DNA of 64,000 nucleotides from an uncultured bacterium (GTDB lineage: Bacteria > Fidelibacterota > Marinisomatia > Marinisomatales > UBA1611): positions 29,486 to 93,485 of the forward strand of contig CAZGFQ010000001.1 in NCBI GenBank assembly GCA_964525185.1. Reading direction: 5' to 3'. This document shows positions 22,086 through 41,206 of the stretch, one piece after another. The translations under genes and the position numbers were made by a program. Numbering within the stretch: the stretch's first letter is position 1; the number at the start of each line of letters is the position of its first letter. The notes under the pieces are model-generated. The model searched no databases. It was not told the origin of the DNA and was given only the letters and a program-made list of their open reading frames with translations.

Positions 22086-22093
22086 ATGTCACT

Positions 22094-23212: not shown

Positions 23213-23233
23213 AAGAAACCTCGTAATTTGAGT

Positions 23234-24025
23234 TTAAAGTGGACCTGAAATGCCGCCATCTTTCCGGATTCTCCAGAAATGTACAGCCATCAAAATCATC
23301 ACAATGAATGGAACACCAATACAGTGTAAAACATAGAAGCGCAACAAAGATGCTTCCCCAACAAATCGCCCACCTAATAAGGCAAAACGAACATCCGAAC
23401 CTGCATGGACCAAATTTATATCCCCAATCGCCAATAATGATGCTCCCGGCCCTTCACTTCCAATGAATGGATGAGCACGTGCCATATTTGTTCCAACTGT
23501 AATAGCCCAAATCGCTAATTGATCCCATGGAAGTAAATATCCAGTGAATGATAAAAACATGGTTAAAGTCATAAGCAGCACACCAACACCCCAATTGAAT
23601 TCTCTTGGTGGCTTATATGACCCAGTCATAAATACACGGAGCATATGCAACCATACTGTTAAAACCATTGCATGGGCACCCCAACGATGTAATTCACGCA
23701 TTATACCAAGTGGCACTTGTTCTGCCATGTCGATAATATCAGTATATGCATATTCAACCGTTGGTCTATAATAAAACATGAGAAGTATTCCAGTAATGGT
23801 AAGAACAATAAATAGGAAGAAGGATAACCCCCCCATACACCATGTATACCCAACTTTAACAGCATGTTTGGGTATGCGAGCAGGGTGAAGGTGGAGGAAG
23901 ACACTCCCTAAAATCGCTTGCATGCGTTGACGTCTTGAACGAGGAACACCAGATCGAATAATTGATTTCCAAACTTGAGATTCTCCCATTCTTTCTAAGA
24001 ATGATTTTTTATTTTTATTTTCCAT
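23234..24025 (-). CDS. Cytochrome b N-terminal subunit (b6-like)
   Basis: The signature stretch is ...HLHP...GGLSFFLFIVLTITGILLMFYY...RELHRWGAHAMVLTVWLHMLRVF..GSYK.PRE.NW..GV......FTGYLLPWDQ. Confidence 0.9.
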   Translation of the reverse strand: MENKNKKSFLERMGESQVWKSIIRSGVPRSRRQRMQAILGSVFLHLHPARIPKHAVKVGYTWCMGGLSFFLFIVLTITGILLMFYYRPTVEYAYTDIIDMAEQVPLGIMRELHRWGAHAMVLTVWLHMLRVFMTGSYKPPREFNWGVGVLLMTLTMFLSFTGYLLPWDQLAIWAITVGTNMARAHPFIGSEGPGASLLAIGDINLVHAGSDVRFALLGGRFVGEASLLRFYVLHCIGVPFIVMILMAVHFWRIRKDGGISGPL

Positions 24026-24043
24026 ATTGCTTTAGAATTCCTA

Positions 24044-24592
24044 TTAAACTTTTAAGAAGGATTCGGCATTTTCCCATTCGCCTTTTTCCCATTTGAAACT
24101 TTTTGTTTTATCTACAAGTATTTGACCGTCGGTTGCAACCGAAATTTTATATCGTTCCAAAGGTCGAGGGGCAGGTCCTTCAAAATTAATTCCAGTCATA
24201 CGAAAACCACTTCCGTGGCATGGACATTTAAATTTATTTTCCGTACCTAACCAATTAGGCGTGCACCCTAAATGTGTACAAACAGTTGAAAGAGCAAAGA
24301 TGGATTCTTCATCTCTAACCATCCACACATTATATTTCTTTTTATATCGAGTGTCCACAAAATTTGAAGCATAATCGTTGGGAAATCCTGCTTTAAAAGT
24401 TTGAGGTGGCTCAAATAATACGTTTGGAAAAAGAAAACGAACAATGACGGTGAAAAATCCACCCGTTGCGGCAGAAAATGCAATCCAACCCACTGTCATC
24501 CATCGGAAAAAACCGCGGCGTCCAAGCGCATTATCATCTTTTTCTGCTGGAGTTACAGAAGCAGGCGGTGTTGTTTTTATGTCTTCAGTCAT
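24044..24592 (-). CDS. Rieske [2Fe-2S] subunit
   Basis: It has CTHLGC and CPCHGS cluster boxes and an N-terminal GRRGFFRW twin-arginine-like anchor. Confidence 0.9.
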   Translation of the reverse strand: MTEDIKTTPPASVTPAEKDDNALGRRGFFRWMTVGWIAFSAATGGFFTVIVRFLFPNVLFEPPQTFKAGFPNDYASNFVDTRYKKKYNVWMVRDEESIFALSTVCTHLGCTPNWLGTENKFKCPCHGSGFRMTGINFEGPAPRPLERYKISVATDGQILVDKTKSFKWEKGEWENAESFLKV

Positions 24593-24595
24593 AAT

Positions 24596-25471
24596 TTAAA
24601 TAACCCTATTGTATGCTGATTTTAATGATTTTATTGCTGCATCGCGAATAGACAAATTGGGCTCGGATGTAGCAACTTTTGCTAATTGATCTTCAAATTG
24701 ATTGTCGGGGAATTGCGCTGCAATATGTATCGCTACAAGCATTGCTTGATTTTTTTCGCTTTCATCAACTTCTGGAAAGGATTCAAAGTAGGATCTATCC
24801 ATTAAATTGGTAATGATATGATTTCCGGAATGGTCGCCCATTTTGGCTAATGCTATTGCAGAATCCCAACGAATATTTGGTTCTTCATCATCTAATAATA
24901 TTTTTAATGTAGGAATAGATTCTAAATGGCCAATTTTACCTAATGCAATAGTGGCGGCTAATCGTTCTTCCACAATTTTTGAATTCAGAGATAATTGATT
25001 CAACGGCTGCACTGCATCAGAATATTGAATCATTCCGATGGCTTGAATCGCCGCTAAACGTGACATACGATCTTCATCGGATAACCCAGTTAATAGTGTT
25101 AGACCAAAAATATCCCGTCCAGTTTGCCCCATTGCTAAAGCTAAATAAGTTCGAACTTTGACATTATCATGAATAGATTTATTATAGGCTGAAATCATTT
25201 GATTATTGAAATCCATCTCTTCAGGAATTAAATCTGGTTGGGATAATATTTTAGATAATTCATAGGCAGATTGCCATCGTTTAGATGCTGATCCTGCTCT
25301 AACATCATTTAAATAGTCATAAGCATTGTTGGATTCAAATGTAATAAATTTGAAAAGTAGAAAAAACACAGCACCAAAAATAGCAATCATAAAAGGAACT
25401 AGAAAAAAAGAATAAAATAAAACATATATCCTGCTATTCTCTTTTGCATTTAATTTATCTTTTATGCTCAT
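24596..25471 (-). CDS. Membrane-anchored HEAT-repeat protein
   Basis: An N-terminal TM is followed by repeated ..R..A..ALG.IG...A...L..LL.D motifs (PBS-lyase/HEAT-like). It lies 3 nt upstream of the Rieske gene. Confidence 0.75.
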   Translation of the reverse strand: MSIKDKLNAKENSRIYVLFYSFFLVPFMIAIFGAVFFLLFKFITFESNNAYDYLNDVRAGSASKRWQSAYELSKILSQPDLIPEEMDFNNQMISAYNKSIHDNVKVRTYLALAMGQTGRDIFGLTLLTGLSDEDRMSRLAAIQAIGMIQYSDAVQPLNQLSLNSKIVEERLAATIALGKIGHLESIPTLKILLDDEEPNIRWDSAIALAKMGDHSGNHIITNLMDRSYFESFPEVDESEKNQAMLVAIHIAAQFPDNQFEDQLAKVATSEPNLSIRDAAIKSLKSAYNRVI

Positions 25472-25624
25472 TTAAGTTTTATCCGATGTTGGTTCAATTT
25501 TGTTCCACATAATATTAAGACGTTTTTCCAATTTTCTAACTTTACGTTTCATAGAAAAAATTTCACTCACTAGGAGTAAAGCAAAAATAAATGTTAATAC
25601 TGTTATTAAAGGAAAAATATTCAT
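25472..25624 (-). CDS. Small (50 aa) single-TM protein, not in ORF track
   Basis: The product is MNIFPLITVLTFIFALLLVSEIFSMKRKVRKLEKRLNIMWNKIEPTSDKT. Its ATG overlaps the stop of the upstream small ORF (ATGA at 25621..25624), and its TAA abuts the ATG of the HEAT-repeat gene. Confidence 0.4.
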   Translation of the reverse strand: MNIFPLITVLTFIFALLLVSEIFSMKRKVRKLEKRLNIMWNKIEPTSDKT

Positions 25625-25776
25625 TTTTCACCAGCAACTTGATTTGAATCATTTTTTAATTGTAGCCCCAGTAATATTGGGAAAAAGAATAATATGACCA
25701 ATCCAACAATAAGAATACCAACTGCCCAGTGCATGTGATCCATCAACCATGTAAGTGTTAACCATTCGAAATTCAT
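25621..25776 (-). CDS. Small (51 aa) membrane protein
   Basis: The ATG at 25776 gives MNFEWLTLTWLMDHMHWAVGILIVGLVILFFFPILLGLQLKNDSNQVAGEK. The track start at 25833 is a TTG. Confidence 0.35.
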   Translation of the reverse strand: MNFEWLTLTWLMDHMHWAVGILIVGLVILFFFPILLGLQLKNDSNQVAGEK

Positions 25777-25889
25777 TTTATAAAACCCAATATACCATTG
25801 TGATATAAAAAAGAAGTAATAAGGTTGAAACAACCATAGAAATCCATTGTGAACGACTTATTTTAGGCGTTGAACTATTGGGGCTCATA

Positions 25890-27191
25890 TTATGATTTTG
25901 CTCTTTTGGCTTTTACAACAGCCGATTTAATTTTTCCACGAAGCACTTTATTTTCAAGAGCATTAATTTCATCTATATTTCCCGCAACACCATCCGCAAC
26001 TAATCGATTGATTAATTCTTCATCTGATTCTTGTGGTGCATCATTTGCAACAGGTTGCATTTCCTGTATCTCTGGCATAGGAGGCCTTTCTGCTTTACCT
26101 CGATTAATTTTAACAACTAATGCTTTTGCCTTACCACGTGTTGCCTTGTTATCAATACCATTAATGTATTCTTTATCCCCATCTAATGCTTTATTAACAG
26201 CAATGGCAATGATATCATCAGCACTTAATTCAACTGCAGATCCAGACGCTTGGGCTGCGCCGCCTTCTGGTTTCTCTGGTTTTGGAGGGATGACACCTGT
26301 CCTTTTGGCTTTTACAACACCAGCTTTTGCCATGCCGCGAATAGGCTTTTCTGAAATAGAATTAATAAAATCCATATTCCCTTCCATACCCATATTAATG
26401 GCGTATGCAATATAATCTTCTCGAGATCCAAAACCACCAAATTGAGATGCACCTGATTGTCCGCTTTCACCTTCTTCATCAGACTGAGTAAAATCAACTT
26501 TGGGTACAATGGATTCTAACGTTATAAGTGTCTGTGCTTCTCTTTTATAAAATTTGAAAAGCGATAAAAATGAAAAGAGCCCTTTACTGTGTTTTTTGTA
26601 ATTAATTAATACTCCCTTTTCGTGAGATTCGAGGGATATAGTTATTTGTTCAGTATATAATGGACTAAAGCGCATTTCGAGGACTAATTCTTTTTCTTTT
26701 TCGATAGAAACAATTTTGCAATTGAAATATGTGGATAAAGAAAAGGGTCTTATTTTAAAAAGTGTTCCTGCTTTTAAATCAATTCGATCAAATGAATATT
26801 GAGTTACATATCGATCTGTTTCAACAACAGGTAATGCACGTTGGACTCTTGGCATCCATACATTCAATAATTGGAGAGAAGTTATTGCTCTCCATAGAAT
26901 ATCTGATGTCGTTGAGAAAAATCGTTGTATTTGACAGTCAGCCACAAATGGAGCATAAGAAGCATTTGCAAAATGAGTTTCAGGAGTTGGGAATTCTGGA
27001 GATTGGTAATTAGGTGATAACCGAGTTATACCTGATAAATCAATCTCATGTGACGTATAATGATTTATACATCCATCAGCAGTTTCAACTTCAAACCGCG
27101 TTGGATAGTGATATATCTTCTTTAAGGTTCCTTCTTCTCCCGTTGAAAGAACGGTGCAGGTTGTCCCTAAATCGACCTGATGTAAACTCAT
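25890..27191 (-). CDS. Protein with SRPBCC-like middle domain and three C-terminal ~40-aa basic repeats
   Basis: The central region (ILWRAITSLQLLNVWMP...FKIRPFSLSTYFNCKIVSIEKEKELVLEM...) resembles a START/polyketide-cyclase fold. Three repeats end in RG(M/K)(A/I)K(A/S).VVK(A/I)(K/N)R. The family is not recognised. Confidence 0.6.
   Translation of the reverse strand: MSLHQVDLGTTCTVLSTGEEGTLKKIYHYPTRFEVETADGCINHYTSHEIDLSGITRLSPNYQSPEFPTPETHFANASYAPFVADCQIQRFFSTTSDILWRAITSLQLLNVWMPRVQRALPVVETDRYVTQYSFDRIDLKAGTLFKIRPFSLSTYFNCKIVSIEKEKELVLEMRFSPLYTEQITISLESHEKGVLINYKKHSKGLFSFLSLFKFYKREAQTLITLESIVPKVDFTQSDEEGESGQSGASQFGGFGSREDYIAYAINMGMEGNMDFINSISEKPIRGMAKAGVVKAKRTGVIPPKPEKPEGGAAQASGSAVELSADDIIAIAVNKALDGDKEYINGIDNKATRGKAKALVVKINRGKAERPPMPEIQEMQPVANDAPQESDEELINRLVADGVAGNIDEINALENKVLRGKIKSAVVKAKRAKS
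25902..26420 (-). repeat. Three in-frame repeats (period ~66-67 codons) in the C-terminal third of the 433-aa protein
   Basis: Residues 258-297, 325-364 and 390-430 share the pattern I..A(I/V)N....G....IN.I..K..RGKAKA.VVKAKR. Confidence 0.7.
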
Positions 27192-27362
27192 ACTCTCTTC
27201 AATTAAATTTATTGTTTGTTGATATTAACATTGATAACTCCAATTATGGTATCAAATGCAGACGCAGAAGGTATTAAGATAATACCTTAAATAAAAAAAA
27301 ATATTTCATTTTTATGCGTATGGTTTTACGATCAAATAAATGATTAAATTATTTGTCTATTT

Positions 27363-28295
27363 ATGAAATATTTTTCACGATTTTCAACCTTAACCACTCT
27401 ATTAACTTACATCTTGATTTTTGTTGGCGGTTTAGTTCGTGTATCAGGTGCAGGAATGGGCTGTCCCGATTGGCCAAAATGTTTTGGTCGGTGGATTCCA
27501 CCCACGAGCCTTGATCAATTACCAACCGATATTGATCCAGCTCAATTTAATATAGTATTAGCATGGATTGAATATTCTAATCGATTAGTGGGCGTTGTGA
27601 TAGGACTCATGATTACAGCCACTTTGATTCTCGCATATAAATATTATAAAAATGAAAAAAAAGTTTTAATACCTATTTTCATTTCTTTTATTATGGTGGG
27701 TCTTGTAGGTTGGCAGGGGAGTCAAGTTGTCGGGACTGTCCTTAATCCACTGACTGTTTCATTGCACATGGTACTCGCATTATTTGCAATAACCTTTTTA
27801 ATCATTGGAACCCAAAATGCTTATTATTTAGCATATCCTGTTGAAGAAAAGGATAGTTATTATCCGTGTAAAATGAAATATGGCTTTTTGGCGATGGGAA
27901 TCTCATTATTCTTAGAAATTATTTTAGGGACAGAATTAAGAGCTGGATTAGAAATGGTTCGAAAAGATAATCCTCTTGTAGAAAGTGTCTTATTACTCAA
28001 AATGTTAGGACCCTTTAAATATATTCATACAGTTTTGGGCGTAATACTTGCTGGGGTTTCTTGGTGGATATGGTATCATTTTACACAGAAAAGTGAAAAT
28101 GCTTCCATGACAACACAAAGAGCAAGTTTAGCCATAATGGGGTTAGTGTTGATTCAAATTGTTGTTGGAGAACTAATGGTATTTTCAAGTGTGAATCCCA
28201 TTTATCAATTATTTCATATGTGGAGCGCAACGTGGGTTTTGGGACTCCTTATAGTTGAATACGGGGCATGGAAACGATCGGGAGATTTAAATTGA
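27363..28295 (+). CDS. ctaA: Haem A synthase (COX15/CtaA)
   Basis: It has the GAGMGCPDWPKCFG motif, and the 8-TM profile contains conserved His residues. Confidence 0.85.
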   Translation: MKYFSRFSTLTTLLTYILIFVGGLVRVSGAGMGCPDWPKCFGRWIPPTSLDQLPTDIDPAQFNIVLAWIEYSNRLVGVVIGLMITATLILAYKYYKNEKKVLIPIFISFIMVGLVGWQGSQVVGTVLNPLTVSLHMVLALFAITFLIIGTQNAYYLAYPVEEKDSYYPCKMKYGFLAMGISLFLEIILGTELRAGLEMVRKDNPLVESVLLLKMLGPFKYIHTVLGVILAGVSWWIWYHFTQKSENASMTTQRASLAIMGLVLIQIVVGELMVFSSVNPIYQLFHMWSATWVLGLLIVEYGAWKRSGDLN

Positions 28296-28891
28296 AAAAA
28301 GAAACGATCCTATTATCTTTCATTTTGGTGCTTGGACTTATGATTATTGGGGCAACGTGGGTTGTTAAACAAGCATCTCAAGCACAATCATCTGCTATAC
28401 CTATTTTAAACAAAGTTCCATCTTTTGCGGCAACATCTCACTTAGGAAAGCCATTTACCGAAAATAGCCTTATTGGAAAAATCACTATTGTAGATTTTAT
28501 GTTTACCCAATGTACCGGTCCATGCCCGATGATGTCTTCAAATATGAAAAACCTTTATGATCAATATGCAAATGTGGAACAAGTTCAATTCGTTTCCATT
28601 ACAGTAGATCCAGCAAATGATAATATTGAAACATTGGCGGCTTATGCAAACGCCCACCAAGTTACGGATCAACGGTGGCAATTTTTACGTGCCGAAAATC
28701 CCCAAGTAGAAGAATTAAGTCAAAATGGATTTAAATTATACGCAAAGGAGCTACCTGTAGGCCATGCCATTAAATTTGTATTGGTAGATGATAAGGGGAA
28801 TATTCGTCAATATTATGATGGATTAGAAGAAGCGAGTATCGCTATCTTGCGCACGCATATTAACCAATTAGTTAAAGATTTGAATTCATAA
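28268..28891 (+). CDS. SCO1/SenC copper chaperone
   Basis: It has FMFTQCTGPCP (CxxxCP) and a thioredoxin fold. An alternative TTG start at 28292 has a GGAGA 6 nt upstream. Confidence 0.85.
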   Translation: METIGRFKLKKETILLSFILVLGLMIIGATWVVKQASQAQSSAIPILNKVPSFAATSHLGKPFTENSLIGKITIVDFMFTQCTGPCPMMSSNMKNLYDQYANVEQVQFVSITVDPANDNIETLAAYANAHQVTDQRWQFLRAENPQVEELSQNGFKLYAKELPVGHAIKFVLVDDKGNIRQYYDGLEEASIAILRTHINQLVKDLNS

Positions 28892-29772
28892 TGGAAAAAG
28901 TATATAAACCAGCCCCGACACGAATGAGTGCATATATAGAGCTAACAAAGCCACGTATTACACTGTTAGTTGTTATTACAACTGCGTTTGGTTTTTATTT
29001 AGGAGGGCGTGGATTCCATGGTTTTTTCCCACTTGTGTATGTACTTGTTGGGACTGCTCTTGTTTCGGCTGGTGCAGGAGCAATAAATCATTATATGGAG
29101 CGGGAAACGGATCGTCTTATGATTCGCACACGGAATCGTCCAATTCCTGCTGGAATCCTTCAACCTGAAGAAGTATTTTGGTTTGGATTTATTCTAATAT
29201 TTTCTGGTGTATTTGTTCTTCTGGCTTTTGCCAATTTATTAACATCTTTTATGGCGTTATTAACAGCATTTCTTTACATATTTGTTTATACACCTTTAAA
29301 AAAAGTAACCTGGTTGAACACATCAATTGGAGCGATACCAGGATCGATTCCACCTTTGGGCGGGTGGGCCGCAGCAACAGGACAATTAGACCAAGCCGCT
29401 TGGGTTTTATTTGCCATTATGTATTTATGGCAACATCCCCATTTTTATGCGATTGCACAATTATGTAAACAAGATTATGCTCGTGCCGGGTTACAAATGT
29501 TGCCTGTATTAGAAGATTCTCTCAAACGAACAAATCGCCAAATATTGTGGCATTCAATATTATTAATACCCATTTCTGTTTTGCCATCCTTATTAGGCAT
29601 TTCAGGATCTGTCTACTTCTTGGGTGCAGGAATTATGAGTATTGGATATATGATGGCTGGCCTACCCATCTTTCAAAGAGATCAACTAAAACGTGCTAAA
29701 TTTTTATTAAAAGTATCTGTTCTTTATTTGCCTGCTCTGTTTGCCTTAATTATTATTGATTTAACCACTTAG
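28891..29772 (+). CDS. ctaB: Protohaem IX farnesyltransferase (haem O synthase)
   Basis: It has UbiA-family motifs (NHYMERETDRLMIRTRNRPIP..G) and a multi-TM profile. A TAATG overlap links it to the upstream gene. Confidence 0.9.
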   Translation: MEKVYKPAPTRMSAYIELTKPRITLLVVITTAFGFYLGGRGFHGFFPLVYVLVGTALVSAGAGAINHYMERETDRLMIRTRNRPIPAGILQPEEVFWFGFILIFSGVFVLLAFANLLTSFMALLTAFLYIFVYTPLKKVTWLNTSIGAIPGSIPPLGGWAAATGQLDQAAWVLFAIMYLWQHPHFYAIAQLCKQDYARAGLQMLPVLEDSLKRTNRQILWHSILLIPISVLPSLLGISGSVYFLGAGIMSIGYMMAGLPIFQRDQLKRAKFLLKVSVLYLPALFALIIIDLTT

Positions 29773-29783
29773 ACCAATTCTAC

Positions 29784-30302
29784 ATGAAAAATAATGATCA
29801 ATTCTGGATAAGGATTATATATATCCTGTCGGTTATTCTTACCCTTGCCGTTGCTTTTCTAATTTTAGGACCAAGACCTGATGGATTGGAAGGAGCAGTG
29901 GATGTATCTTTTTTACCAAAAGTGAATGCAATTTTAAATGGGGTGACAACACTTTTATTAATTGTGGCTTATGTGCTAATTCTAAGACGGAAAATTGTTT
30001 TGCACAAAAAGGTTATGTTATCATCCTTCGGTACATCAACAGCATTTTTAGTGAGCTATGTGATTTACCATTGGTTTAAAAGTGGGCCCAAGTTATATGC
30101 AGGAGAATGGACAACATTCTATTATTTTATTTTATTTAGCCATATCTTATTAGCTATGGTCATTATTCCGATGGCATTGATTACATTATATCGCGGATGG
30201 AATAACCAATTAGGGAAGCATAAGTACATTGCCAGAATTACTCTTCCACTATGGTTATATGTCTCTGTTACAGGTGTTGTGATTTATTTGATGTTGTATT
30301 AA
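29784..30302 (+). CDS. DUF420-type membrane protein (oxidase-assembly associated)
   Basis: It is a four-TM protein of ~170 aa placed after ctaB, as in many cta clusters. The family assignment is from memory. Confidence 0.65.
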   Translation: MKNNDQFWIRIIYILSVILTLAVAFLILGPRPDGLEGAVDVSFLPKVNAILNGVTTLLLIVAYVLILRRKIVLHKKVMLSSFGTSTAFLVSYVIYHWFKSGPKLYAGEWTTFYYFILFSHILLAMVIIPMALITLYRGWNNQLGKHKYIARITLPLWLYVSVTGVVIYLMLY

Positions 30303-33300
30303 TTAACATTTAAATATTTAACCAACCCTCCAAATTCCGGATCAATTTGAAATCCCATTTTATAAAAGAATTTTTCATGGAAAAATCCAACCGTTGCGTG
30401 AGTAATTCCACGAGCATTTAACCGATTAAAACATTCATCCATCAATTTCTGGCTTAAATTATTCCCTTGAAATGCTTTCTTAACAACAACCCACTCAAGG
30501 TGGACATGTTTAGATGAAATGTTTTTCCAAAATACACCGCCTGCTAATTGATTTTGTTTATCGAATAAAAATAAAAATTCATGATTTGCCTGAAAAAGTG
30601 CATTCAAATCTGCTTCCATTAAAACAGAATGAAATTTAGCAATTTCTTTAGGCTTAAATGGGGGCCGAACACGATATAATTGATGGTTGGAATCCTCAAC
30701 TTGTACAACAAGATCTAATTTTTCTGTTTCACCCATTTCCAAAGATACAAGTTCAATATAATCTCCAGATTCAAGATTCCTGAAAAGCATTTTAGCGAGG
30801 AAAAATTCTTCATCTTCTGAAAGTTTAATTTCATTTTTTATATATTGAATTCGTTGAGCAATAGACAAAGGGTCCATTTTCTTATTTCGTAGATTTTGTA
30901 TGATTTCTTTAAAGGCTTCAGTTAATTCATGAGACGATTGTTTAAAACAAGTCATCATAAAAAAGCGCACTCGAGTTTCGGGATAATCTTCTATAAGTGT
31001 ATCTAAATGGTAGTCTTGGTATAGTTCTTCCAATATAGATGAACGGGCACTTCGGGTTGCATCCGTATTAAGTTCAAGCCAGCGTTCATATCGAAGGGAT
31101 GCAAATACAACTGGTTTTGTTAAAACACCTATTTCTTTTGTTTCTGTAATAAATTGTTGAATACGTTCGGCTGTGCAATTCAATTCTTCAAATTGTATTC
31201 GAATGGACTTATCATCCATAGCATGAATCAATTTTTCAAGCATTGGAATACCTTGGTTCACGGTGGCTACTCGAAGAGTACATGTGAAAATAATTTCCCA
31301 ATCTGCCATTCTTTTTAGGCCAGGAAATTGTTTTTCTGTTTCTAAAATAAATTGCTGGAAAAGTGTTAAATAAAGAGTGGAAATTGATTGCTCTGGCTCT
31401 CTATCTGAGATTGAAATTAATCTTCGGCCACGAGAATAATCGTGTTCGGGTATAATTAAATTTCGTGGTGATGGATTTTTAATATTTAATGTAAAATGGG
31501 ACCGGCTCCAAAATTCTAAATATGTGTATATACCATTCCACATAAAATGTAGCCAACGCATTTGCCACCGATCTTCAGCACGTTTGTTTTGAATTTCAAC
31601 ACGATTTCTTTCTAAATATTGATGGAGAGTTTCTCCTGAAATATATTCTTCAGTGTACACATCATATTCCGGCCAATATCCCCCAAAATCTTCCACAAGT
31701 TTATCATCTTTGTATGCAGGACCCATGAGAATCAGCCATCGCGTTTCATCTTCTAAAAAGGATCGATCTAATTTTTCATTTACGTTAATAACAAAATTAT
31801 GAATTCCCAATGTACGAGTTCGTACAAGGATTCTAAAAACACTTTTTCCATGCCTAGATCCCAAGTGAGACACCCAAATACCTTTTAATGGAATATCATC
31901 CAATTGGATTAAACAATGATTTGAAAATATAAATAAAGCCTCTCTTAATAGAGTTGTACCCATAAAGGCGTGCAATATATGTTCTTTATGTTTTTGGCGA
32001 ACATTATTATCAAAATCTAGTACCTGTTCCCATGAATATTCTTGTCCCGTTTCTCTGTCAACAGATAAAGTAGCCACAGGTCCCAGCCATCGCCTAAACC
32101 CGTTGATTAATGCAAAATGCGATTTTTGCGCGGTAGATTTTATACGGTTTGGCACATTCGCAATTTGCCACCATGATAATTCTGCACGAGCCCAAGAAAA
32201 TCCGGTAGGATGTTGAATACCAAAATCTGATACCATAAGCAATAATGTTTGAAGAAATCCCAGCCCAATTGAATCTAATTCATTTAATCGATTCCGATAT
32301 TCATATAATGCACGAATGATACTTTTGTAATGGGGTTCCTTCATTCGTTTAGACTGTATAGAAAATCCTGTGGATACATTCTGTGTCCGGAAAGAATAAA
32401 AGGCATCCTTCAATAATTCGAAAAACATATCTCCCGATAATAAGGGCAATAGTATTTCAATCATGTCTATTTTAAAACGAGGATTTGGATGTTTAAAAAA
32501 TTGTATACATGTTTCCCGGATTAATTGTTTCCATTGAGAATTGGATTGGTCTATTAATTCCCTGAGCGGTTTGAAACATGTTTTATCTCCATGTATGTAT
32601 GCTTGAATCAAAGTATGGAATTCTTTTAATTGAGTAAGCCCTTTGTCTAATTCTTTATGCCGATACCCATCATGTTCAAATAAAGATTGATTAGCAATAA
32701 CATGTATACCTTGATAATTATCAAATTCCCTCAATCTAAATAATAAGTCGCCACAAAAGGATACAAATGATTCATTCCCAAGCCATAAATGCGGGCTTTT
32801 TATGAAAGGTTGAAAATCGAAAAAGGAGTCTTCAATTTCATATTGAAAATCGCCAATTTGAATTATGTTTTCTTTCCAGGAAAAAGACAAATTCCCGTGT
32901 TCGGATTGAGTCAAAAGATAGTCCCCATCCCAGGATAGGGTAGTTCTCGGAATACCAAGCTCTCTTAATAGCCAAATTGGAATTCTTATTTCATTTTTCC
33001 CCTGATATAGATTGATATAATTTTTTCGATACATGGGAACAATAACATCGCCAAAATTTTCTAATACTTTTTTCCGGTTAAAAGAATTCTTATTGGTTAA
33101 TTCTCCATAATCTTTACTGAAATCTCTTTGAATAACAGCAAAATTGACAATGCGTTCAAACGATGAAAGAAAACTGTTTACAGATAATATTAATGAACTG
33201 AAATAATGTCGTATCCCCTCCCGCGATGCTTGATCAAAATTGAATAATGTATTAGCTGTATCGGGATAAATGAGGACAGTGTTGAATTCTTGGCCGTCAC

Positions 33301-34885
33301 CAACGAGAAAAATAGATTTTATTGATTCAAAATCTTGAAACAGATTTTCAATTTTTTGTGGTGCAATTGTTTGTCCTCGGCTATTCTTATATATGTCTTT
33401 TTTCCTATCAACGATGAAAAAATGACCATTTTTTTCCTCGAAAATATCGCCAGTGTGGAACCAACCATTCTTAAGTAAAGGTATTTCATTTTTCCCAAAA
33501 TAACCAATTGAAATATATTCACCGCGTAAAAGTAATTCATTGTCGTCTGCTAATGCCATTTCAATACCCGGTAAAGGTTTTCCAACAGAGTCCGGAGCAT
33601 AATCGTTCGGAGGTGTCATAGAAATCCCTCCCGAAGCTTCCGTCATGCCATATCCGCTCATTAAATGAATACCCCGATCTTGGAAAAATGAGAAAATATC
33701 TGGATCCAAATATCCGGCTCCAGCGAGACCCCATTTTAAATGTTCGCCTGTTATTTCTTTCAATAAATCTAAAACTTGATTGTCATTTAACTGGTTTGCA
33801 TTTCTCTTTAATTCAATCATATCATACATTTGAACCCATCGTTTTGGAATACTTATAAAAACGGAAGGTTTGGCTAAGCGAAATCCTTGAAGAATTGAAT
33901 TAAATGCAGGTGACTCAGAAAATGTATATGTAGCGCCCCAATAGATTGCTCCCATTAATTCAAAAAAACGACCAAATGTATGAAATAATGGCAGGTAGCA
34001 TAAAAATACATCTGTATTTCCAACTTCTGGAAGCGCCAATGCTCGTGCAAACCGTTTAGAAACCATATTCACATGGGAGAATGAAATCCCTTTGGGAAAG
34101 TCTGTTGTCCCAGACGTATATAGTACGGTAACGGGGTCATCCACATTTATGTCATTGAATTGATCAATTGTTCGGATCGGTTCCGATGTGTGTACTAAAT
34201 CGAGAAAAGATTCCCAGTGATACTTGGTATGTATATATTGTTCTTTTCCAGATACGGCAATTATCTGAACTGATGAGTGATCTGTATAAATGGCATTCCA
34301 CTTTTGTGCTGCACTTTCACTGCTAATAAATAGGTGTGTAACGCCAGAATGATTTAATGTATAAGATAAATGTTCTTGAGTTAAGTTTATGGGAAGAGGA
34401 ACAACAGTTACGCCAGAAATAATACAAGCGAGATCCACCATAGATGTTTTAACCTGATTTGGAGAAAAAATGCCCACAATTATAGGACCATCTGAAAGAG
34501 CTTTTATTGATTCACTTATATGGCATACTTGATTCCATACCTGAGAATAAGAGAAGGAGTGAAGTTCATCTTTCTCAATAAATTGCAATAATGGTTTATC
34601 CCCGTATAGCAGTACTCTTTGTAGAAATAATTTTCCAAAGTGAAATTGGCTTTTCCGAATCAATTTAACAATAATTTTAAACCATTCATTATGATTATTA
34701 TGATTAGAAAATAGGTGAGCAACGGCTGAATGGTGGCATTTATCTAGGAAAAAATATATATCTTCAGATGAAACGTCTTTATCCAAAAGTTCATGAGCCA
34801 AATCAATGATTAATGGCTTACTTTTGCCATTCAAGTTTTTCGGTTCAAATGCATTTGAAATAACATCTTTCATGAGCAATTCCAT
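30299..34885 (-). CDS. 1528-aa fusion: long-chain acyl-CoA-synthetase-like adenylating domain + ~770-aa unknown region + C-terminal GNAT acyltransferase
   Basis: The N-terminal ~620 aa carry LYTSGTTDFPKG, GYGMTEASG, WFHTGD, DRKKDIYK and ELTNKNSFNRKK (ACSL-type motifs). The last ~130 aa are GNAT-like (HLEWVVVKKAFQGNNLSQKLMDECFNRLNARGITHATV). The middle has no recognised domain. Confidence 0.8.
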   Translation of the reverse strand: MELLMKDVISNAFEPKNLNGKSKPLIIDLAHELLDKDVSSEDIYFFLDKCHHSAVAHLFSNHNNHNEWFKIIVKLIRKSQFHFGKLFLQRVLLYGDKPLLQFIEKDELHSFSYSQVWNQVCHISESIKALSDGPIIVGIFSPNQVKTSMVDLACIISGVTVVPLPINLTQEHLSYTLNHSGVTHLFISSESAAQKWNAIYTDHSSVQIIAVSGKEQYIHTKYHWESFLDLVHTSEPIRTIDQFNDINVDDPVTVLYTSGTTDFPKGISFSHVNMVSKRFARALALPEVGNTDVFLCYLPLFHTFGRFFELMGAIYWGATYTFSESPAFNSILQGFRLAKPSVFISIPKRWVQMYDMIELKRNANQLNDNQVLDLLKEITGEHLKWGLAGAGYLDPDIFSFFQDRGIHLMSGYGMTEASGGISMTPPNDYAPDSVGKPLPGIEMALADDNELLLRGEYISIGYFGKNEIPLLKNGWFHTGDIFEEKNGHFFIVDRKKDIYKNSRGQTIAPQKIENLFQDFESIKSIFLVGDGQEFNTVLIYPDTANTLFNFDQASREGIRHYFSSLILSVNSFLSSFERIVNFAVIQRDFSKDYGELTNKNSFNRKKVLENFGDVIVPMYRKNYINLYQGKNEIRIPIWLLRELGIPRTTLSWDGDYLLTQSEHGNLSFSWKENIIQIGDFQYEIEDSFFDFQPFIKSPHLWLGNESFVSFCGDLLFRLREFDNYQGIHVIANQSLFEHDGYRHKELDKGLTQLKEFHTLIQAYIHGDKTCFKPLRELIDQSNSQWKQLIRETCIQFFKHPNPRFKIDMIEILLPLLSGDMFFELLKDAFYSFRTQNVSTGFSIQSKRMKEPHYKSIIRALYEYRNRLNELDSIGLGFLQTLLLMVSDFGIQHPTGFSWARAELSWWQIANVPNRIKSTAQKSHFALINGFRRWLGPVATLSVDRETGQEYSWEQVLDFDNNVRQKHKEHILHAFMGTTLLREALFIFSNHCLIQLDDIPLKGIWVSHLGSRHGKSVFRILVRTRTLGIHNFVINVNEKLDRSFLEDETRWLILMGPAYKDDKLVEDFGGYWPEYDVYTEEYISGETLHQYLERNRVEIQNKRAEDRWQMRWLHFMWNGIYTYLEFWSRSHFTLNIKNPSPRNLIIPEHDYSRGRRLISISDREPEQSISTLYLTLFQQFILETEKQFPGLKRMADWEIIFTCTLRVATVNQGIPMLEKLIHAMDDKSIRIQFEELNCTAERIQQFITETKEIGVLTKPVVFASLRYERWLELNTDATRSARSSILEELYQDYHLDTLIEDYPETRVRFFMMTCFKQSSHELTEAFKEIIQNLRNKKMDPLSIAQRIQYIKNEIKLSEDEEFFLAKMLFRNLESGDYIELVSLEMGETEKLDLVVQVEDSNHQLYRVRPPFKPKEIAKFHSVLMEADLNALFQANHEFLFLFDKQNQLAGGVFWKNISSKHVHLEWVVVKKAFQGNNLSQKLMDECFNRLNARGITHATVGFFHEKFFYKMGFQIDPEFGGLVKYLNVN

Positions 34886-35066: not shown

Positions 35067-36698
35067 ATGTCTGAGATTAATCAACTCAAACAACGTATTT
35101 CCCAATTACAGGGAAGAATAGCCCATCTAAATGAAATTGGTATTGCCCTTTCATCTGAAAAAAATACGGATAAACTTTTTGAGATGATTTTAGATGCAGG
35201 TAAAAAAATTACAAATGCAGATGGCCGTACACTGTACATGAAGAATCAAGATGGTAATCTTGATTTCAAAATATTATTAAATGAAACTATGAACACACAT
35301 GTGGGTGGTACATCCGGTGTTGAAATTCCATTTTATCCAGTCAAATTATGGTTGGATGAACATACACCAAATCATGCTAATGTGTCTGCGTATGTTGCAT
35401 TGACAGGAAAAACAGTTCATATTGATGATGCTTACGAAGAAGATGGCTTTGATTTTTCTGGTACAAAAGGGTTTGATAAAAAAACAGGATTCAGATCAAA
35501 ATCATTTTTAACGGTTCCATTGAAAAATCATGAAGATGACATTATTGGAGTAATGCAACTCATTAATGCACGAGATAAAGAAGGAAATGTCATACATTTT
35601 TCAGATGAAATGCAGGAGCAAGTGGAATCCATTGCATCTCAAGGTGCTGTTGCTTTAACCAATAAAAAGCTTGTTGAAGAATTAAAAACTTTATTTGAAG
35701 CATTCATAAAACTGATTGCTGTGGCCATCGATAAAAAATCTCCATACACGGGCGGACACTGTGAACGAGTCCCCATTATAACTATGATGCTTGCAGATGC
35801 AGTTGAAAAAGTAGACTATGGAAAGTACAAAGATTTTTCAATGAATGATGATGAACGCTACGAATTATATATTGCAGCATGGTTGCACGATTGTGGAAAA
35901 GTGGCTACACCACCACACGTTGTTGATAAAGGTACAAAGCTTGAAACAATTTATGATAGAATTGGTCTCATTGATACACGATTTGAAATATTGCGCCGTG
36001 ATGCGAAAATCAAATATCTTGAACAAAAGGCAGGGTTATTTGAAGCAACAGAAGAAACAATTCAAAAAATTGAAGATGATTACCGTGCTCAATTAAAACA
36101 GATTGATGAAGACCAGGCTTTTATAAAGCTCGTGAATCATGGAGGCGAATTCATGGAAAAAGATCTTCAAGAAAGAGTTTTAGATATTGCTAAATACCCA
36201 TATATCGAAAATGGAGTTGAAAAACCATTTCTTAGTGCAGATGAAGTTACTAATCTGAATATTCCAAAAGGAACTTTAACAGATGAGGAACGCACTATCA
36301 TTAATGATCATATTGTTATTACCATTGATATGCTTGAAAAACTTCCATATCCAAAACAATTAAAAAATGTACCTGAATTTGCAGGTGGACATCATGAAAA
36401 AATGGATGGAACAGGATATCCAAAAGGACTTAAAGGTGACCAAATGTCTGTCCAGGCAAAAATGATGGCCATTGCAGACATTTATGAGGCATTAACTGCG
36501 GCAGACAGACCTTATAAAGATGGGAAAAAAATATCACAAGCCATGCGAATCATGGGGTATATGAAAAATGATTATCATATTGACCCTGACTTATTCGAAA
36601 TATTTGTAAAAGAAGGTATCTATAAAAAATATGCAGGTGAATATGTAGATTCTATCCAGATTGACCAGGTTCAGGAAGGCGATTTCACTCTTTCATAA
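35067..36698 (+). CDS. GAF + HD-GYP domain protein (putative c-di-GMP phosphodiesterase)
   Basis: A GAF-like N-terminal half is followed by the HD motif LHDCGKV and GGHHEKMDGTGYPKGL. Confidence 0.85.
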   Translation: MSEINQLKQRISQLQGRIAHLNEIGIALSSEKNTDKLFEMILDAGKKITNADGRTLYMKNQDGNLDFKILLNETMNTHVGGTSGVEIPFYPVKLWLDEHTPNHANVSAYVALTGKTVHIDDAYEEDGFDFSGTKGFDKKTGFRSKSFLTVPLKNHEDDIIGVMQLINARDKEGNVIHFSDEMQEQVESIASQGAVALTNKKLVEELKTLFEAFIKLIAVAIDKKSPYTGGHCERVPIITMMLADAVEKVDYGKYKDFSMNDDERYELYIAAWLHDCGKVATPPHVVDKGTKLETIYDRIGLIDTRFEILRRDAKIKYLEQKAGLFEATEETIQKIEDDYRAQLKQIDEDQAFIKLVNHGGEFMEKDLQERVLDIAKYPYIENGVEKPFLSADEVTNLNIPKGTLTDEERTIINDHIVITIDMLEKLPYPKQLKNVPEFAGGHHEKMDGTGYPKGLKGDQMSVQAKMMAIADIYEALTAADRPYKDGKKISQAMRIMGYMKNDYHIDPDLFEIFVKEGIYKKYAGEYVDSIQIDQVQEGDFTLS

Positions 36699-36965
36699 AT
36701 GAAAAAACAGTCTATCATTTCAATGTCGCGAAATGAATTAAAGGTATACATTGAAGAAATCCAAAATGAACTACAAATCAAACTTACACAAGGGAAAAGC
36801 ATAGATGAATTCCTTGATTCAACTGATTTATTTGATGAATTTGAAACAATCCTTCCAGATAAAGAATTCGGTATATTCGTTATTACTATTTTACACAATA
36901 TTAAAAAAGAAGGTGTATTGAATTCTATCCTTGATATGATAGAAATATCTACCAGAGAATTATGA
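36699..36965 (+). CDS. Hypothetical 88-aa protein
   Basis: The ATG directly follows the upstream stop, and a 4-nt overlap links it to the downstream transporter gene. No family was recognised. Confidence 0.45.
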   Translation: MKKQSIISMSRNELKVYIEEIQNELQIKLTQGKSIDEFLDSTDLFDEFETILPDKEFGIFVITILHNIKKEGVLNSILDMIEISTREL

Positions 36966-38798: not shown

Positions 38799-39395
38799 AT
38801 GAATAATCATTTGGACGAAAAAACACTGATTGAAAATGCTGTGAATGGCGACCAAAATGCCATGGCAGTGTTAGTCGAATCTCACTCAGCTCGAATTTAT
38901 AGTTTAGCAATTAAATTGCTACAAAACGAAGAAGATGCTGAAGATATTCTTCAAGAAACATTTATTATTATGATGAAAAAATTGAATACATTTTCTGGAA
39001 AATCAAGCCTATATACATGGCTATATCGGATTGCAACAAACCTCGCTTTAGGTAAATTGCGAAGTAAAAAAATTGTTAACCCAAATGATGATATTGATAA
39101 TTTGAGTGAATCGAGTTATCTTGGAAAAGATATTCGAAAATGGGTAAACCCAATGGAAGAAGAGCAAGATCAATCTTTAATGAAATCGTGTTTAGAGCAA
39201 GCAATTTCAAAGTTACCTGATTCGTATCGGTCTGTTTTTATTATGAGAGATGTGGAAAAAAATTCAACGAGACATACTGCGGAAATATTGGGTCTTACAG
39301 AAGCAAATGTAAAAGTAAGATTAATGAGAGCCCGCCTTTATTTGAGAGATAGATTAGCTGAAAATATGAAATGCGTGGATGTAATACCAACCTAA
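38799..39395 (+). CDS. ECF-type RNA polymerase sigma-70 factor
   Basis: Region 2 (EDAEDILQETFIIMMKKL...YTWLYRIATN) and region 4 (RSVFIMRDVEKNSTRHTAEILGLTEANVKVRLMRAR) are present. Confidence 0.9.
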   Translation: MNNHLDEKTLIENAVNGDQNAMAVLVESHSARIYSLAIKLLQNEEDAEDILQETFIIMMKKLNTFSGKSSLYTWLYRIATNLALGKLRSKKIVNPNDDIDNLSESSYLGKDIRKWVNPMEEEQDQSLMKSCLEQAISKLPDSYRSVFIMRDVEKNSTRHTAEILGLTEANVKVRLMRARLYLRDRLAENMKCVDVIPT

Positions 39396-40011: not shown

Positions 40012-40204
40012 AGATTTAGTTCGTGACTATCCTGAAGTTGTTCGTCCTTTAGCTGAAAAAGGGTTAATCTGTATTGCCTGTGGTGAACCCGTCTGGGGTA
40101 CTTTAGGCGAATTGGCAGAAAGTAAAGGGATAACACATATTGATACTATTATAGAAGAATTGAATTCAATTATTTCAGAAAAAAGAGAGGAAATTACTCA
40201 ATGA
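39986..40204 (+). CDS. DUF1858 / hybrid-cluster-protein-associated redox disulfide protein
   Basis: The ATG at 39986 has an AGAGGA upstream. The product reads IEDLVRDYPEVVRPLAEKGLICIACGEPVWGTLGELAESKGI, with a C..C pair. Confidence 0.6.
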   Translation: MLAKHTYIEDLVRDYPEVVRPLAEKGLICIACGEPVWGTLGELAESKGITHIDTIIEELNSIISEKREEITQ

Positions 40205-40617
40205 TTAAATCAATATTTTTACTTGTTGCATTGGTAGGAACGGGACTTTGGATGTATAGTGGTCAAAATGCCATTCTATCAGATGGGCAAAAATATTCCA
40301 TAGAAAATATACCAAATATTTCAGTCGAAGATGTTATTTCTAAAATTGAAAATAATGAAAATATTCTTATACTAGATGTAAGAACAAAGGGTGAATATAC
40401 CGGCTCACTTGGACATATAGATAATTCAATATTGATACCAGTACAAGAGTTAGGATCTAGATTATCTGAAATGAAACTTTATAATGAAAAAGAAATTATA
40501 GTTGTATGTCGAAGTGGGAATAGAAGCCGAACTGGTACAATGATTCTCATGAATGCAGGGTATCGTGCTATCAACATGCTTGGGGGAATGAAAGCGTGGA
40601 ACAAAAAGAAAAATTAA
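40201..40617 (+). CDS. Rhodanese-domain sulfurtransferase, membrane/secretion anchored
   Basis: The active-site loop is VCRSGNRS and an N-terminal hydrophobic segment is present. An ATGA overlap links it to the upstream gene. Confidence 0.85.
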   Translation: MIKSIFLLVALVGTGLWMYSGQNAILSDGQKYSIENIPNISVEDVISKIENNENILILDVRTKGEYTGSLGHIDNSILIPVQELGSRLSEMKLYNEKEIIVVCRSGNRSRTGTMILMNAGYRAINMLGGMKAWNKKKN

Positions 40618-40823
40618 ATAAGCTCAAACAACGACTTCCTAAATTACTTTTGGGAGGATTTGTCGGAGCAAGTATAGGTTATATTTATTATTATTTTATT
40701 GGGTGTAATTCAGGGCATTGCTCCATTACAGGTAATCCAATTAATAGTACAGTCTATGGCGCATTTGTAGGCTTTTTATGGATGTGGCCTGTAAAGAAAA
40801 AAAATGGAGAAACTAAATCATGA
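40596..40823 (+). CDS. Small membrane protein with GCNSGHC motif
   Basis: It has two hydrophobic helices flanking GCNSGHCSITGNP. The start is a GTG, and an ATGA overlap links it to the downstream gene. Confidence 0.5.
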   Translation: MEQKEKLNKLKQRLPKLLLGGFVGASIGYIYYYFIGCNSGHCSITGNPINSTVYGAFVGFLWMWPVKKKNGETKS

Positions 40824-41206
40824 AATATGGTTATTCAAAAAAAGTAAATCTATCTATGGATAGTGCAGAATCGAATATTCGAAAATCATTAATGGATGTG
40901 GGGTTTGGGGTATTAACTGATATAGATGTACAGCAAGCAATGAAAGAAAGGCTGGGTGAATCTTTCAGACCGTATAAAATTTTGGGAGCTTGTAATCCTC
41001 CCATTGCATTTAAAGCATTATCGGAAGAAATTGAAATTGGATTATTGTTGCCATGCAATGTCGTTTTATGGGAAAATGATGATAAAACTGTAACAGTCGC
41101 TGCAATAAATGCAAAATCTATGTTGTCAGTTACTGAGCGAAATGATTTGGCTGAAATGGCGGACCATATTAATGGCTTATTACAGACGGCAATTGATGCC
41201 GTATGA
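40820..41206 (+). CDS. DUF302-domain protein
   Basis: GFGVLTDIDVQQAMKERLG...YKILGACNP is the typical DUF302 core. Confidence 0.8.
   Translation: MKYGYSKKVNLSMDSAESNIRKSLMDVGFGVLTDIDVQQAMKERLGESFRPYKILGACNPPIAFKALSEEIEIGLLLPCNVVLWENDDKTVTVAAINAKSMLSVTERNDLAEMADHINGLLQTAIDAV

Follow-up and report, generated by a model that had tools for sequence, protein, structure and literature searches.

Organization and Distribution of the Giant Gene

The 64,000-nucleotide stretch of DNA analyzed here (hereafter the window; contig CAZGFQ010000001.1 of assembly GCA_964525185.1, from an uncultured bacterium of the Fidelibacterota) carries on its minus strand a giant gene whose product comprises an N-terminal acyl-coenzyme A (CoA) synthetase, a long middle region, and a C-terminal GNAT domain. 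This three-part layout had been proposed in an earlier note made from the nucleotide sequence, and the Pfam assignments support it. The open reading frame (ORF) and its segments were delimited as follows.

30299..34885, minus strand: whole ORF with ATG start, 1,528 amino acids; 4,587 nucleotides, stop codon included
34607..34885, minus strand: N-terminal extension, residues 1-93; without Pfam match, covered by homologues aligning over 100% of the query
33500..34606, minus strand: large N-domain of the synthetase, residues 94-462; Pfam PF00501 AMP-binding, E 5e-53
33023..33382, minus strand: small C-domain of the synthetase, residues 502-621, ACSL/FadD11-type; Pfam PF23562 AMP-binding_C_3, E 1.6e-9
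33068..33103, minus strand: A10 motif ELTNKNSFNRKK, residues 595-606, with the catalytic-type Lys599; motif position and conservation
32696..33019, minus strand: predicted small beta-rich domain, residues ~623-730; AlphaFold2 models
32084..32632, minus strand: predicted all-helical domain, residues ~752-934, weakly ARM/HEAT-like; AlphaFold2, predicted local distance difference test (pLDDT) about 90
31385..31879, minus strand: predicted kinase-like fold core, residues ~1003-1167; AlphaFold2 and Foldseek
30785..31384, minus strand: predicted helical extension, residues ~1168-1367; AlphaFold2 secondary structure
30314..30757, minus strand: GNAT domain, residues ~1377-1524; Pfam PF13673 and PF00583, Foldseek

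A search of 5.8 billion proteins yielded hundreds of full-length homologues (1,519-1,542 amino acids, 46-90% identity, 97-100% query coverage), and those named by organism were from Marinimicrobia, Neomarinimicrobiota or the FCB group. Their database names were limited to "GNAT family N-acetyltransferase," "AMP-binding protein," or "long-chain acyl-CoA synthetase." When one genome per species was scanned, the gene was detected in 263 species, the best 80 of which were examined as loci. Among these 80, the nearest relative was 91% identical, many loci were labelled simply as "uncultured bacterium," and all phylum-named loci belonged to Marinimicrobia, Neomarinimicrobiota or Fidelibacterota, except for one assigned to the "FCB group." Carriers outside the Marinimicrobia were scattered, the named ones being Ignavibacteriaceae, Calditrichaeota, and Planctomycetia.

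The earlier note had regarded a frameshift or an assembly fusion of separate genes as the finding that would overturn its reading. In 111 of 142 independent loci, however, the kinase-like segment lay within an uninterrupted frame of 1,450 codons or more, while 23 others were truncated by contig ends and 8 were interrupted internally. Four of the latter (L001, L002, L003, and L085) were inspected and proved to be frameshifted copies in ENA metagenome assemblies, from which the full gene was recoverable across frames by tblastn. The GC content was flat across the giant gene, and the single-cell genomes AG-470-O07 and AG-404-J18 were among the loci carrying it. Judging from these frames together with the hundreds of full-length homologues, the 1,528-amino-acid protein is one genuine, widely conserved gene product, and the fusion scenario found no support.

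As a separate observation, the ENA assemblies ERZ250395xx, ERZ25039600, and ERZ26222911 break the giant gene by frameshifts, and in L001 a citrate synthase gene is broken as well. Because such frameshifts split genes into several called ORFs, gene-length statistics drawn from these assemblies are unreliable. Several shorter homologues on long contigs that gave the appearance of a stand-alone "middle plus GNAT" protein (P0164, P0166, P0150, and P0155) were likewise resolved by tblastn into frameshifted full-length genes.

The Acyl-CoA Synthetase Part

The N-terminal part of the protein scored far above the gathering cut-offs of both Pfam models (180.7 bits against 29.9 for PF00501, and 38.6 bits against 20.8 for PF23562). 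The core motifs A3 (YTSGTTDFPKG, residues 256-266), A5 (SGYGMTE, 410-416), and A7 (WFHTGD, 475-480), the A8 hinge (DRKKD, 493-497), and the A10 lysine (K599) were all present, in agreement with the claim of the earlier note that the motif set is complete up to the A10 lysine region. Residue conservation was assessed over 53 full-length family members extending down to 24% identity. In this set E416, D480, R494, K496, E595, T597, and R604 were invariant, and S258, G259, K265, and K599 were conserved in 52 of the 53 members. On these motifs, all of which are intact, the domain is an AMP-forming, ACSL-like member of the ANL superfamily, and their invariance over such deep divergence suggested a working adenylating and thioester-forming enzyme.

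As for the substrate, G413, the second glycine of the "YG" in motif A5, was also invariant across the 53 members. Acetate-specific Acs carries a pocket-filling Trp at this position; with G413 in its place, the protein does not belong with the acetate-specific Acs enzymes. Since the glycine is invariant at the position of the pocket Trp, the substrate is probably larger than acetate, with a medium- or long-chain fatty acid as the probable candidate. The NCBIfam models reached no named synthetase subfamily, the best being PRK06187 (long-chain-fatty-acid-CoA ligase; 174.7 bits against a cut-off of 476) and FadD11 (145.9 against 950), of which the latter aligned to residues 368-621. Among proteins of solved structure, the closest relatives of the synthetase were luciferases (E 1e-25).

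The Middle Region

Pfam returned nothing significant over residues ~622-1400. A profile built from the middle region alone (alignment A2; ~755 residues) was run against 1.84 billion representative proteins, and it retrieved just 477 clusters. Complete profile matches were all found in proteins of 1,373-1,710 amino acids (nearly all of ~1,470-1,710), in which the middle follows an N-terminal region of ~460-700 residues. Pfam scans of divergent members detected AMP-binding plus AMP-binding_C_3 in 30 of 30 and a recognisable GNAT domain in 27 of 30. On these results, the middle region exists only within the synthetase-middle-GNAT architecture.

Two AlphaFold2 models were obtained, one covering residues 600-1528 (41-sequence alignment; pLDDT 87.7, predicted template modelling score 0.75) and the other residues 618-945 (pLDDT 90.4). 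Rather than the single fold of about 770 residues envisaged in the earlier note, the models displayed four modules: the beta-rich domain, the all-helical domain, the kinase-like core, and the helical extension. Only four residues were invariant across the whole middle, namely G678, Y682, and N704 (of LWLGN) in the beta-rich domain, and W1269 in the helical extension, where R1265, Y1292, R1305, and T1312 were near-invariant. Foldseek found no match at E ≤ 1e-3 for the beta-rich plus helical module. The best matches of the helical module were designed armadillo and HEAT-like repeats (E 0.03-0.1), and one homologue gave a sub-threshold match to HEAT_2 (E 3e-4; 21.4 bits against a cut-off of 27.7). 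The model is thus consistent with a solenoid-like helical domain that weakly resembles ARM/HEAT repeats. Against the sequences of the PDB, the middle region gave no matches as a single sequence, and the best hit of its profile (TRF2, E 0.23) was judged to be due to chance.

In the models, the kinase-like core consists of N-lobe strands, an alpha-C-like helix, a hinge-like segment TEEYISGETL (residues 1078-1087), and a loop running from NLIIPEHDY to RLISIS. The sequence motifs quoted in the earlier note were all confirmed in place, those of this region lying at 1012-1023 (HGKSVFRILVRT), 1078-1087 (the hinge-like segment), 1137-1150 (NPSPRNLIIPEHDY), and 1155-1162 (RLISISDR). Foldseek searches against the PDB retrieved Vps34 as the best match (E 1.8e-5), followed by GRK2, JAK2/3, FGFR2, CK2, and PsiK, down to E 6e-4. 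The match probabilities were 0.96-1.00, yet the target template modelling (TM) scores were just 0.2-0.44 at 9-14% identity. None of the kinase families of Pfam (Pkinase, APH, RIO, ABC1, and others) matched at E ≤ 10 in 10 members; the sole Pfam match of these ten kinase-like segments at that threshold, NB-ARC (E 0.02), was judged to be a chance hit. The domain is thus modelled as a bilobal protein-kinase-like fold, the resemblance being at the level of the fold only.

Equivalences of kinase residues were assigned from sequence and secondary structure and not from superposed coordinates. On this basis, the beta3 strand position is occupied by N1034/N1036, which are unconserved across the 53 members, and carries no Lys. 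The equivalent of the alpha-C Glu, E1047, was kept in just 26 of 53 members, and that of the DFG Asp, D1161, in 5 of 53. In a by-eye alignment of IKNPSPRNLII with HRDLKPENILL, the Asn was retained (N1142, 40 of 53) but the Asp was not. K1014 was variable, being K in 19 and R in 14 of the 53. R1018, G1068, D1149, and S1158 were conserved in the domain. In the Marinimicrobia-proximal set, H1012, K1014, R1018, N1034, N1036, E1047, E1079, D1149, R1155, and S1158 were invariant. Because the canonical Lys/Asp/Asp residues are absent or unconserved, the kinase-like domain is probably non-catalytic, a pseudokinase that would act as a scaffold or as a sensor of ligands. The loose resemblance to a kinase fold without its catalytic Asp, pointed out in the earlier note, was accordingly borne out at the level of the fold (Foldseek E 2e-5 to 5e-4) and by the lack of conservation at these residues.

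The GNAT Domain

Two Pfam GNAT models matched residues 1408-1513, Acetyltransf_10 (E 5e-9; 36.6 bits against a cut-off of 23.6) and Acetyltransf_1 (E 2e-6; 28.5 against 20.7). Foldseek matched the C-terminal model to 2r7h, 4rs2, 8iym, 9it0, 3d8p, and 5jq4, the matches including YhbS, HP0935, Ard1, and PatZ (9it0_A), with target TM-scores of 0.6-0.72 for 2r7h, 3d8p, and 5jq4. By both methods the C-terminal domain is a member of the GNAT superfamily, as the earlier note had read it. The structural matches are acetyl-CoA-dependent N-acetyltransferases. The position of the putative general base, E1464, was acidic in 49 of 53 members. Searching the domain against PDB sequences gave just a plant serotonin N-acetyltransferase (E 0.07), which was uninformative about the acceptor.

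In GNAT enzymes, motif A (R/Q-x-x-G-x-G/A) binds the pyrophosphate of CoA (PMC8556138). Members outside the Marinimicrobia display the pattern R-x-x-G-x-[SAG], more exactly R-[KR]-[KR]-G-[VIL]-[SAG]. The fourth-position Gly was kept in 46 of 53 members family-wide and was frequently lost in the Marinimicrobia, in which the variants YRNISLS and YQKRHLS also occur.

Gene Neighborhoods

Metagenome contigs were scanned with the divergent-first alignment, which together with eight earlier loci gave 145 loci. All flanking ORFs were clustered without prior choice for the 63 loci lying outside the species-genome scan, of which one (L142) turned out to be Marinimicrobia and was removed, leaving 62. The largest neighbor family was citrate synthase, found in 14 of these 62 non-Marinimicrobia loci and in 9 of the 29 flanked by 1.5 kb or more at each end. 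In eleven cases it lay within 800 bp of the giant gene, and three arrangements were seen: upstream in the same orientation, downstream in the same orientation, and downstream convergent. The loci concerned span 5 of 13 deep clusters and GC contents of 0.30-0.73. All six of the neighboring citrate synthases tested were citrate (Si)-synthases of the eukaryote-like type. A 2-methylcitrate synthase, which would imply a PrpE-like role, was rejected, since all six fitted NCBIfam PRK09569 with scores far above those for cit_synth_II. No sirtuin or deacetylase was found among the recurrent neighbors.

In a distant homologue (L088, 25% identity), the giant gene shares its strand with a hemE-hemN-hemH-hemY cluster (hemY being protoporphyrinogen oxidase-like), and its start overlaps the stop of the final gene there, which suggests co-transcription with haem biosynthesis. 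Seven high-GC loci (L106, L108, L113, L116, L120, L122, and L128) have a large multihaem cytochrome c-cytochrome b561-like fusion gene just downstream on the opposite strand; in these, a response-regulator gene often lies beside the multihaem cytochrome. To judge from the gene content, the theme shared by these contexts is central carbon and respiratory metabolism.

The neighborhood in the window comprises a respiratory and haem-A island downstream of the giant gene (19089-29772) and, divergent from it, the GAF/HD-GYP gene, a small ORF, a CitMHS/TrkA_C transporter gene, and an ECF sigma factor gene.

19089-22085: multihaem cytochrome c of 998 amino acids, respiratory island
22094-24025: split cytochrome b, respiratory island
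24044-24592: Rieske protein, respiratory island
24596-25471: HEAT-repeat protein, respiratory island
27363-28295: haem A synthase CtaA, respiratory island
28268-28891: SCO1, respiratory island
28891-29772: haem O synthase, respiratory island
35067..36698, plus strand: divergent GAF plus HD_5/HD-GYP gene, 181 nucleotides upstream; Pfam
38799-39395, plus strand: ECF sigma factor, beyond the CitMHS/TrkA_C transporter gene
Between the ECF sigma factor (38799-39395) and the rhodanese gene, plus strand: ORF of 121 amino acids without match
40201-40617, plus strand: rhodanese-domain protein
40820-41206, plus strand: DUF302 protein

This arrangement is common among the Marinimicrobia: in 47 of the 65 loci that could be evaluated, nearly all of them from this phylum, the HD-GYP gene lay no more than 1 kb upstream, and DUF420 was found downstream in 44 of 71. 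Neighbors of the window type (GAF/HD-GYP, CitMHS, haem-A genes, and DUF420) did not recur outside the Marinimicrobia. The GAF/HD-GYP gene, the CitMHS-type transporter, and the haem-A genes were consequently rejected as functional partners, their conservation within the Marinimicrobia alone being ascribed to synteny. The divergent GAF/HD-GYP gene reported in the earlier note is thus present as described, but for the same reason it speaks only weakly for a functional connection.

Several further features of the locus were observed. The genes for haem O synthase, SCO1, and haem A synthase are convergent with the giant gene. So is the DUF420 gene (29784-30302, plus strand), which overlaps the giant gene by 4 nucleotides at the stop codons (30299-30302), leaving no intergenic room for terminators; the gap between the two genes is 4-100 nucleotides in many relatives. 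An ORF of 433 amino acids (25890-27191, minus strand) gave just a sub-threshold AHSA1/SRPBCC-like match (E 3.6e-4) and is syntenic in many Marinimicrobia loci at 35-84% identity. Another of 88 amino acids (36699-36965, plus strand) has no Pfam match, abuts or overlaps both the HD-GYP and the CitMHS/TrkA_C genes between which it lies, and is conserved in 32 related loci (32-86% identity). The ECF sigma and DUF302 genes recur at this position in some Marinimicrobia loci. No RNA family was detected in the window with Rfam, no enrichment over shuffled sequences was obtained in promoter and terminator scans around the giant gene, and no family of the PADLOC anti-phage defence models matched at E ≤ 0.01.

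Proposed Mechanism and Alternative Explanations

We tentatively favor, as the leading candidate, a single polypeptide carrying two working enzymes on a non-catalytic platform, which would perform acyl activation followed by N-acyl transfer. The self-contained enzyme of activation and transfer proposed in the earlier note is a plausible reading. The synthetase would act on a carboxylic acid larger than acetate, with a medium- or long-chain fatty acid as the probable one, and turn it via the acyl-AMP into the acyl-CoA, and the GNAT domain would use this locally made acyl-CoA for the N-acylation of an amine. The middle modules would recruit or sense the acceptor, for which a protein lysine appears likelier than a small molecule. 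Because citrate synthase recurs beside the gene outside the Marinimicrobia and respiratory and haem genes adjoin it within them, the target or signal would probably be part of central carbon and energy metabolism; citrate synthase, or a metabolic component related to it, is a candidate for the acceptor. That a GNAT fold can handle such donors is illustrated by AANATs, which use long-chain acyl-CoA to make N-acylamides (PMC6070697).

A number of observations weigh against this reading. Motif A of the window protein reads QGNNLS (residues 1473-1478) and lacks both the fourth-position Gly and the sixth-position Gly/Ala; with the motif degenerate in the lineage of the window, binding of the CoA ester by the Marinimicrobia GNAT domain may be altered. 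Since the closest relatives of the domain are generic, its donor could be plain acetyl-CoA from the cellular pool, and no carrier domain or channel was identified in the giant protein. In the kinase-like domain, R1018 (47 of 53), N1142 (40 of 53), D1149 (48 of 53), and S1158 (47 of 53) are polar residues conserved family-wide, which could constitute an unrecognised active site. Lastly, the linkage to citrate synthase occurs in only about a quarter of the non-Marinimicrobia loci, and neither the window nor ~80 Marinimicrobia loci have it.

The main rival, which we regard as rather unlikely, is that the synthetase regulates itself: the fused GNAT domain would acetylate or acylate K599 of its own or of a partner subunit, shutting off activity at high acyl-CoA as a single-chain counterpart of AcuA-AcsA or Pat-Acs, and metabolites would be sensed by the middle region. 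As far as the sequence is concerned, such self-regulation is equally compatible with the protein as activation and transfer. The lysine in question is conserved in nearly all members, PatZ is among the structural matches of the C-terminal domain, and citrate synthase, a consumer of acetyl-CoA, would suit the control of acyl-CoA supply as a neighbor. Pat-type enzymes recognise a PX4GK context, whereas K599 lies in the ACSL-like context ELTNKNS (family consensus GELTPKGT), which lacks it; this argues mildly against self-regulation, as does the lack of a sirtuin or deacetylase among the recurrent neighbors. Moreover, a conserved four-module insert of ~755 residues would be an expensive linker if the reaction took place purely in cis. 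There is precedent, in that the acetylation of the A10 lysine of AMP-forming synthetases by GNATs is well established (PMC11255334; PMC8556138) and AcuA and AcsA form a stable inhibitory complex (PMC11255334).

It seems improbable that the role of the synthetase and middle region is regulatory alone, in the service of an ordinary acetyl-CoA-dependent protein acetyltransferase. In such a Pat-like sensor, the synthetase domain would bind ligands, and its product would not be the donor for the GNAT domain. Type I/II acetyltransferases do fuse a synthetase-like allosteric sensor of acetyl-CoA to a GNAT domain (PMC8556138), and the GNAT domain here resembles generic N-acetyltransferases. The synthetase-like domain of Pat has, however, lost its catalytic residue (PMC8556138), whereas all the adenylation and thioesterification motifs are kept in the giant protein, and their invariance over deep divergence points to catalysis rather than mere ligand binding.

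A more specific form of the favored two-enzyme mechanism, to which we assign a low probability, starts from the five described types of bacterial GNAT protein acetyltransferase. Some of these carry inactive NDP-forming synthetase homologues, but none joins the GNAT to an active AMP-forming synthetase or to a kinase-like fold (PMC8556138). The giant protein would then represent a sixth architectural class, a protein acyltransferase making its own donor from an available fatty acid, in which the solenoid and pseudokinase platform docks a central-metabolic enzyme (citrate synthase being the prime candidate) and the GNAT domain fatty-acylates or acetylates the docked enzyme.

Less probable still is a three-enzyme protein, whose kinase-like domain would work as an atypical transferase with non-canonical residues (a kinase, an AMPylase, or a SidJ/SelO-like enzyme) and would modify the substrate before its acylation. 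Some pseudokinases are active because their catalytic residues have been relocated, and the fold was modelled with high confidence; many of its polar residues are invariant in the Marinimicrobia-proximal set, and the four named above are largely kept family-wide. On the other side stand the missing beta3 Lys, the poorly kept equivalents of the alpha-C Glu and DFG Asp, the position equivalent to HRD, which by the sequence reading has no Asp, and K1014, which is K in 19 and R in 14 of 53 members; no kinase, APH or related Pfam family matched, and the TM-scores to kinases are low (0.3-0.44).

Finally, an assembly or annotation artefact joining separate synthetase, middle, and GNAT genes by frameshift or chimeric contig can practically be dismissed, since its only support lies in the broken frames of a few homologous loci, whereas the frame is intact in most loci, single-cell genomes included, the contig-end cuts account for 23 others, the middle region is never seen without its flanking domains, and the assemblies of the four inspected interrupted loci split other genes as well.

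Significance

Marinimicrobia (SAR406/Fidelibacterota) are bacteria that abound in the ocean and have hardly been cultured, and the giant protein is among their largest conserved ones. If its two catalytic ends are coupled, it would provide a compact route from a free fatty acid to an N-acylated product; a lipoamino compound is one possible product, and a protein in acylated form is another. If it instead regulates itself or citrate synthase, it would constitute a new design in bacterial acyl-lysine signaling, with a bacterial pseudokinase scaffold attached to an acetyltransferase. Were the sixth-class reading true, lipid or carboxylate supply would be coupled to entry into the tricarboxylic acid cycle and to respiration in the FCB group and other bacteria. 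The citrate synthase linkage offers a concrete, testable partner. The component parts are familiar, and the interest rests on the obligate architecture, the pseudokinase scaffold, and this linkage.

Comparison with Known Systems

The giant protein shares with Pat/PatZ and SlPatA (type I/II) the combination of a large synthetase-related module and a GNAT domain in one chain (PMC8556138). Both have links with carbon and energy metabolism, and PatZ is itself a structural match of the C-terminal domain. The module of Pat, however, is an inactive NDP-forming homologue (PMC8556138), whereas that of the giant protein is of the AMP-forming ANL type with intact catalytic motifs, and Pfam matched none of the NDP-forming domains (CoA_binding, Succ_CoA_lig, and ATP-grasp) in it. 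The ~755 residues between synthetase and GNAT, including the kinase-like fold, further set it apart from Pat.

With ACSL/FadD11-like synthetases, the N-terminal 621 residues have in common the AMP-binding and AMP-binding_C_3 domains, but the scores fall far below the NCBIfam cut-offs, and the giant protein bears a C-terminal extension of ~900 residues with a GNAT domain. To our knowledge, no ACSL with such a GNAT-bearing extension is known. The middle region recalls PI3K/Vps34, GRK2, and TRRAP-type scaffolds in that a helical repeat domain precedes a kinase-like fold, here beside an acetyltransferase; the likeness to these proteins is confined to the fold and implies no sequence-family relationship. 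Any functional analogy with such scaffolds is our own suggestion.

Carboxylate activation followed by amide formation on a GNAT-fold domain is also the principle of the Drosophila Ebony type and AANATs. In Ebony, the acyl group travels on a phosphopantetheinyl carrier domain, whereas Pfam found no PP-binding carrier domain in the window protein or any of 30 homologues. With no carrier domain detectable, free or channelled acyl-CoA would be needed as the intermediate.

In the AcuA-AcsA and Pat-Acs systems, an AMP-forming synthetase and a GNAT are likewise paired. These are separate proteins built around an acetate-specific Acs, in contrast to the giant protein, which has G413 instead of the pocket Trp, an ACSL-like A10 context, and no deacetylase partner near its gene. 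As AcuA and AcsA associate physically (PMC11255334), the fusion may naturally be read as a "Rosetta stone" for such a partnership. A full-text literature search found no paper on the synthetase-kinase-like-GNAT architecture. The family is thus one of known parts in an uncharacterised architecture, widespread in the Marinimicrobia and scattered elsewhere.

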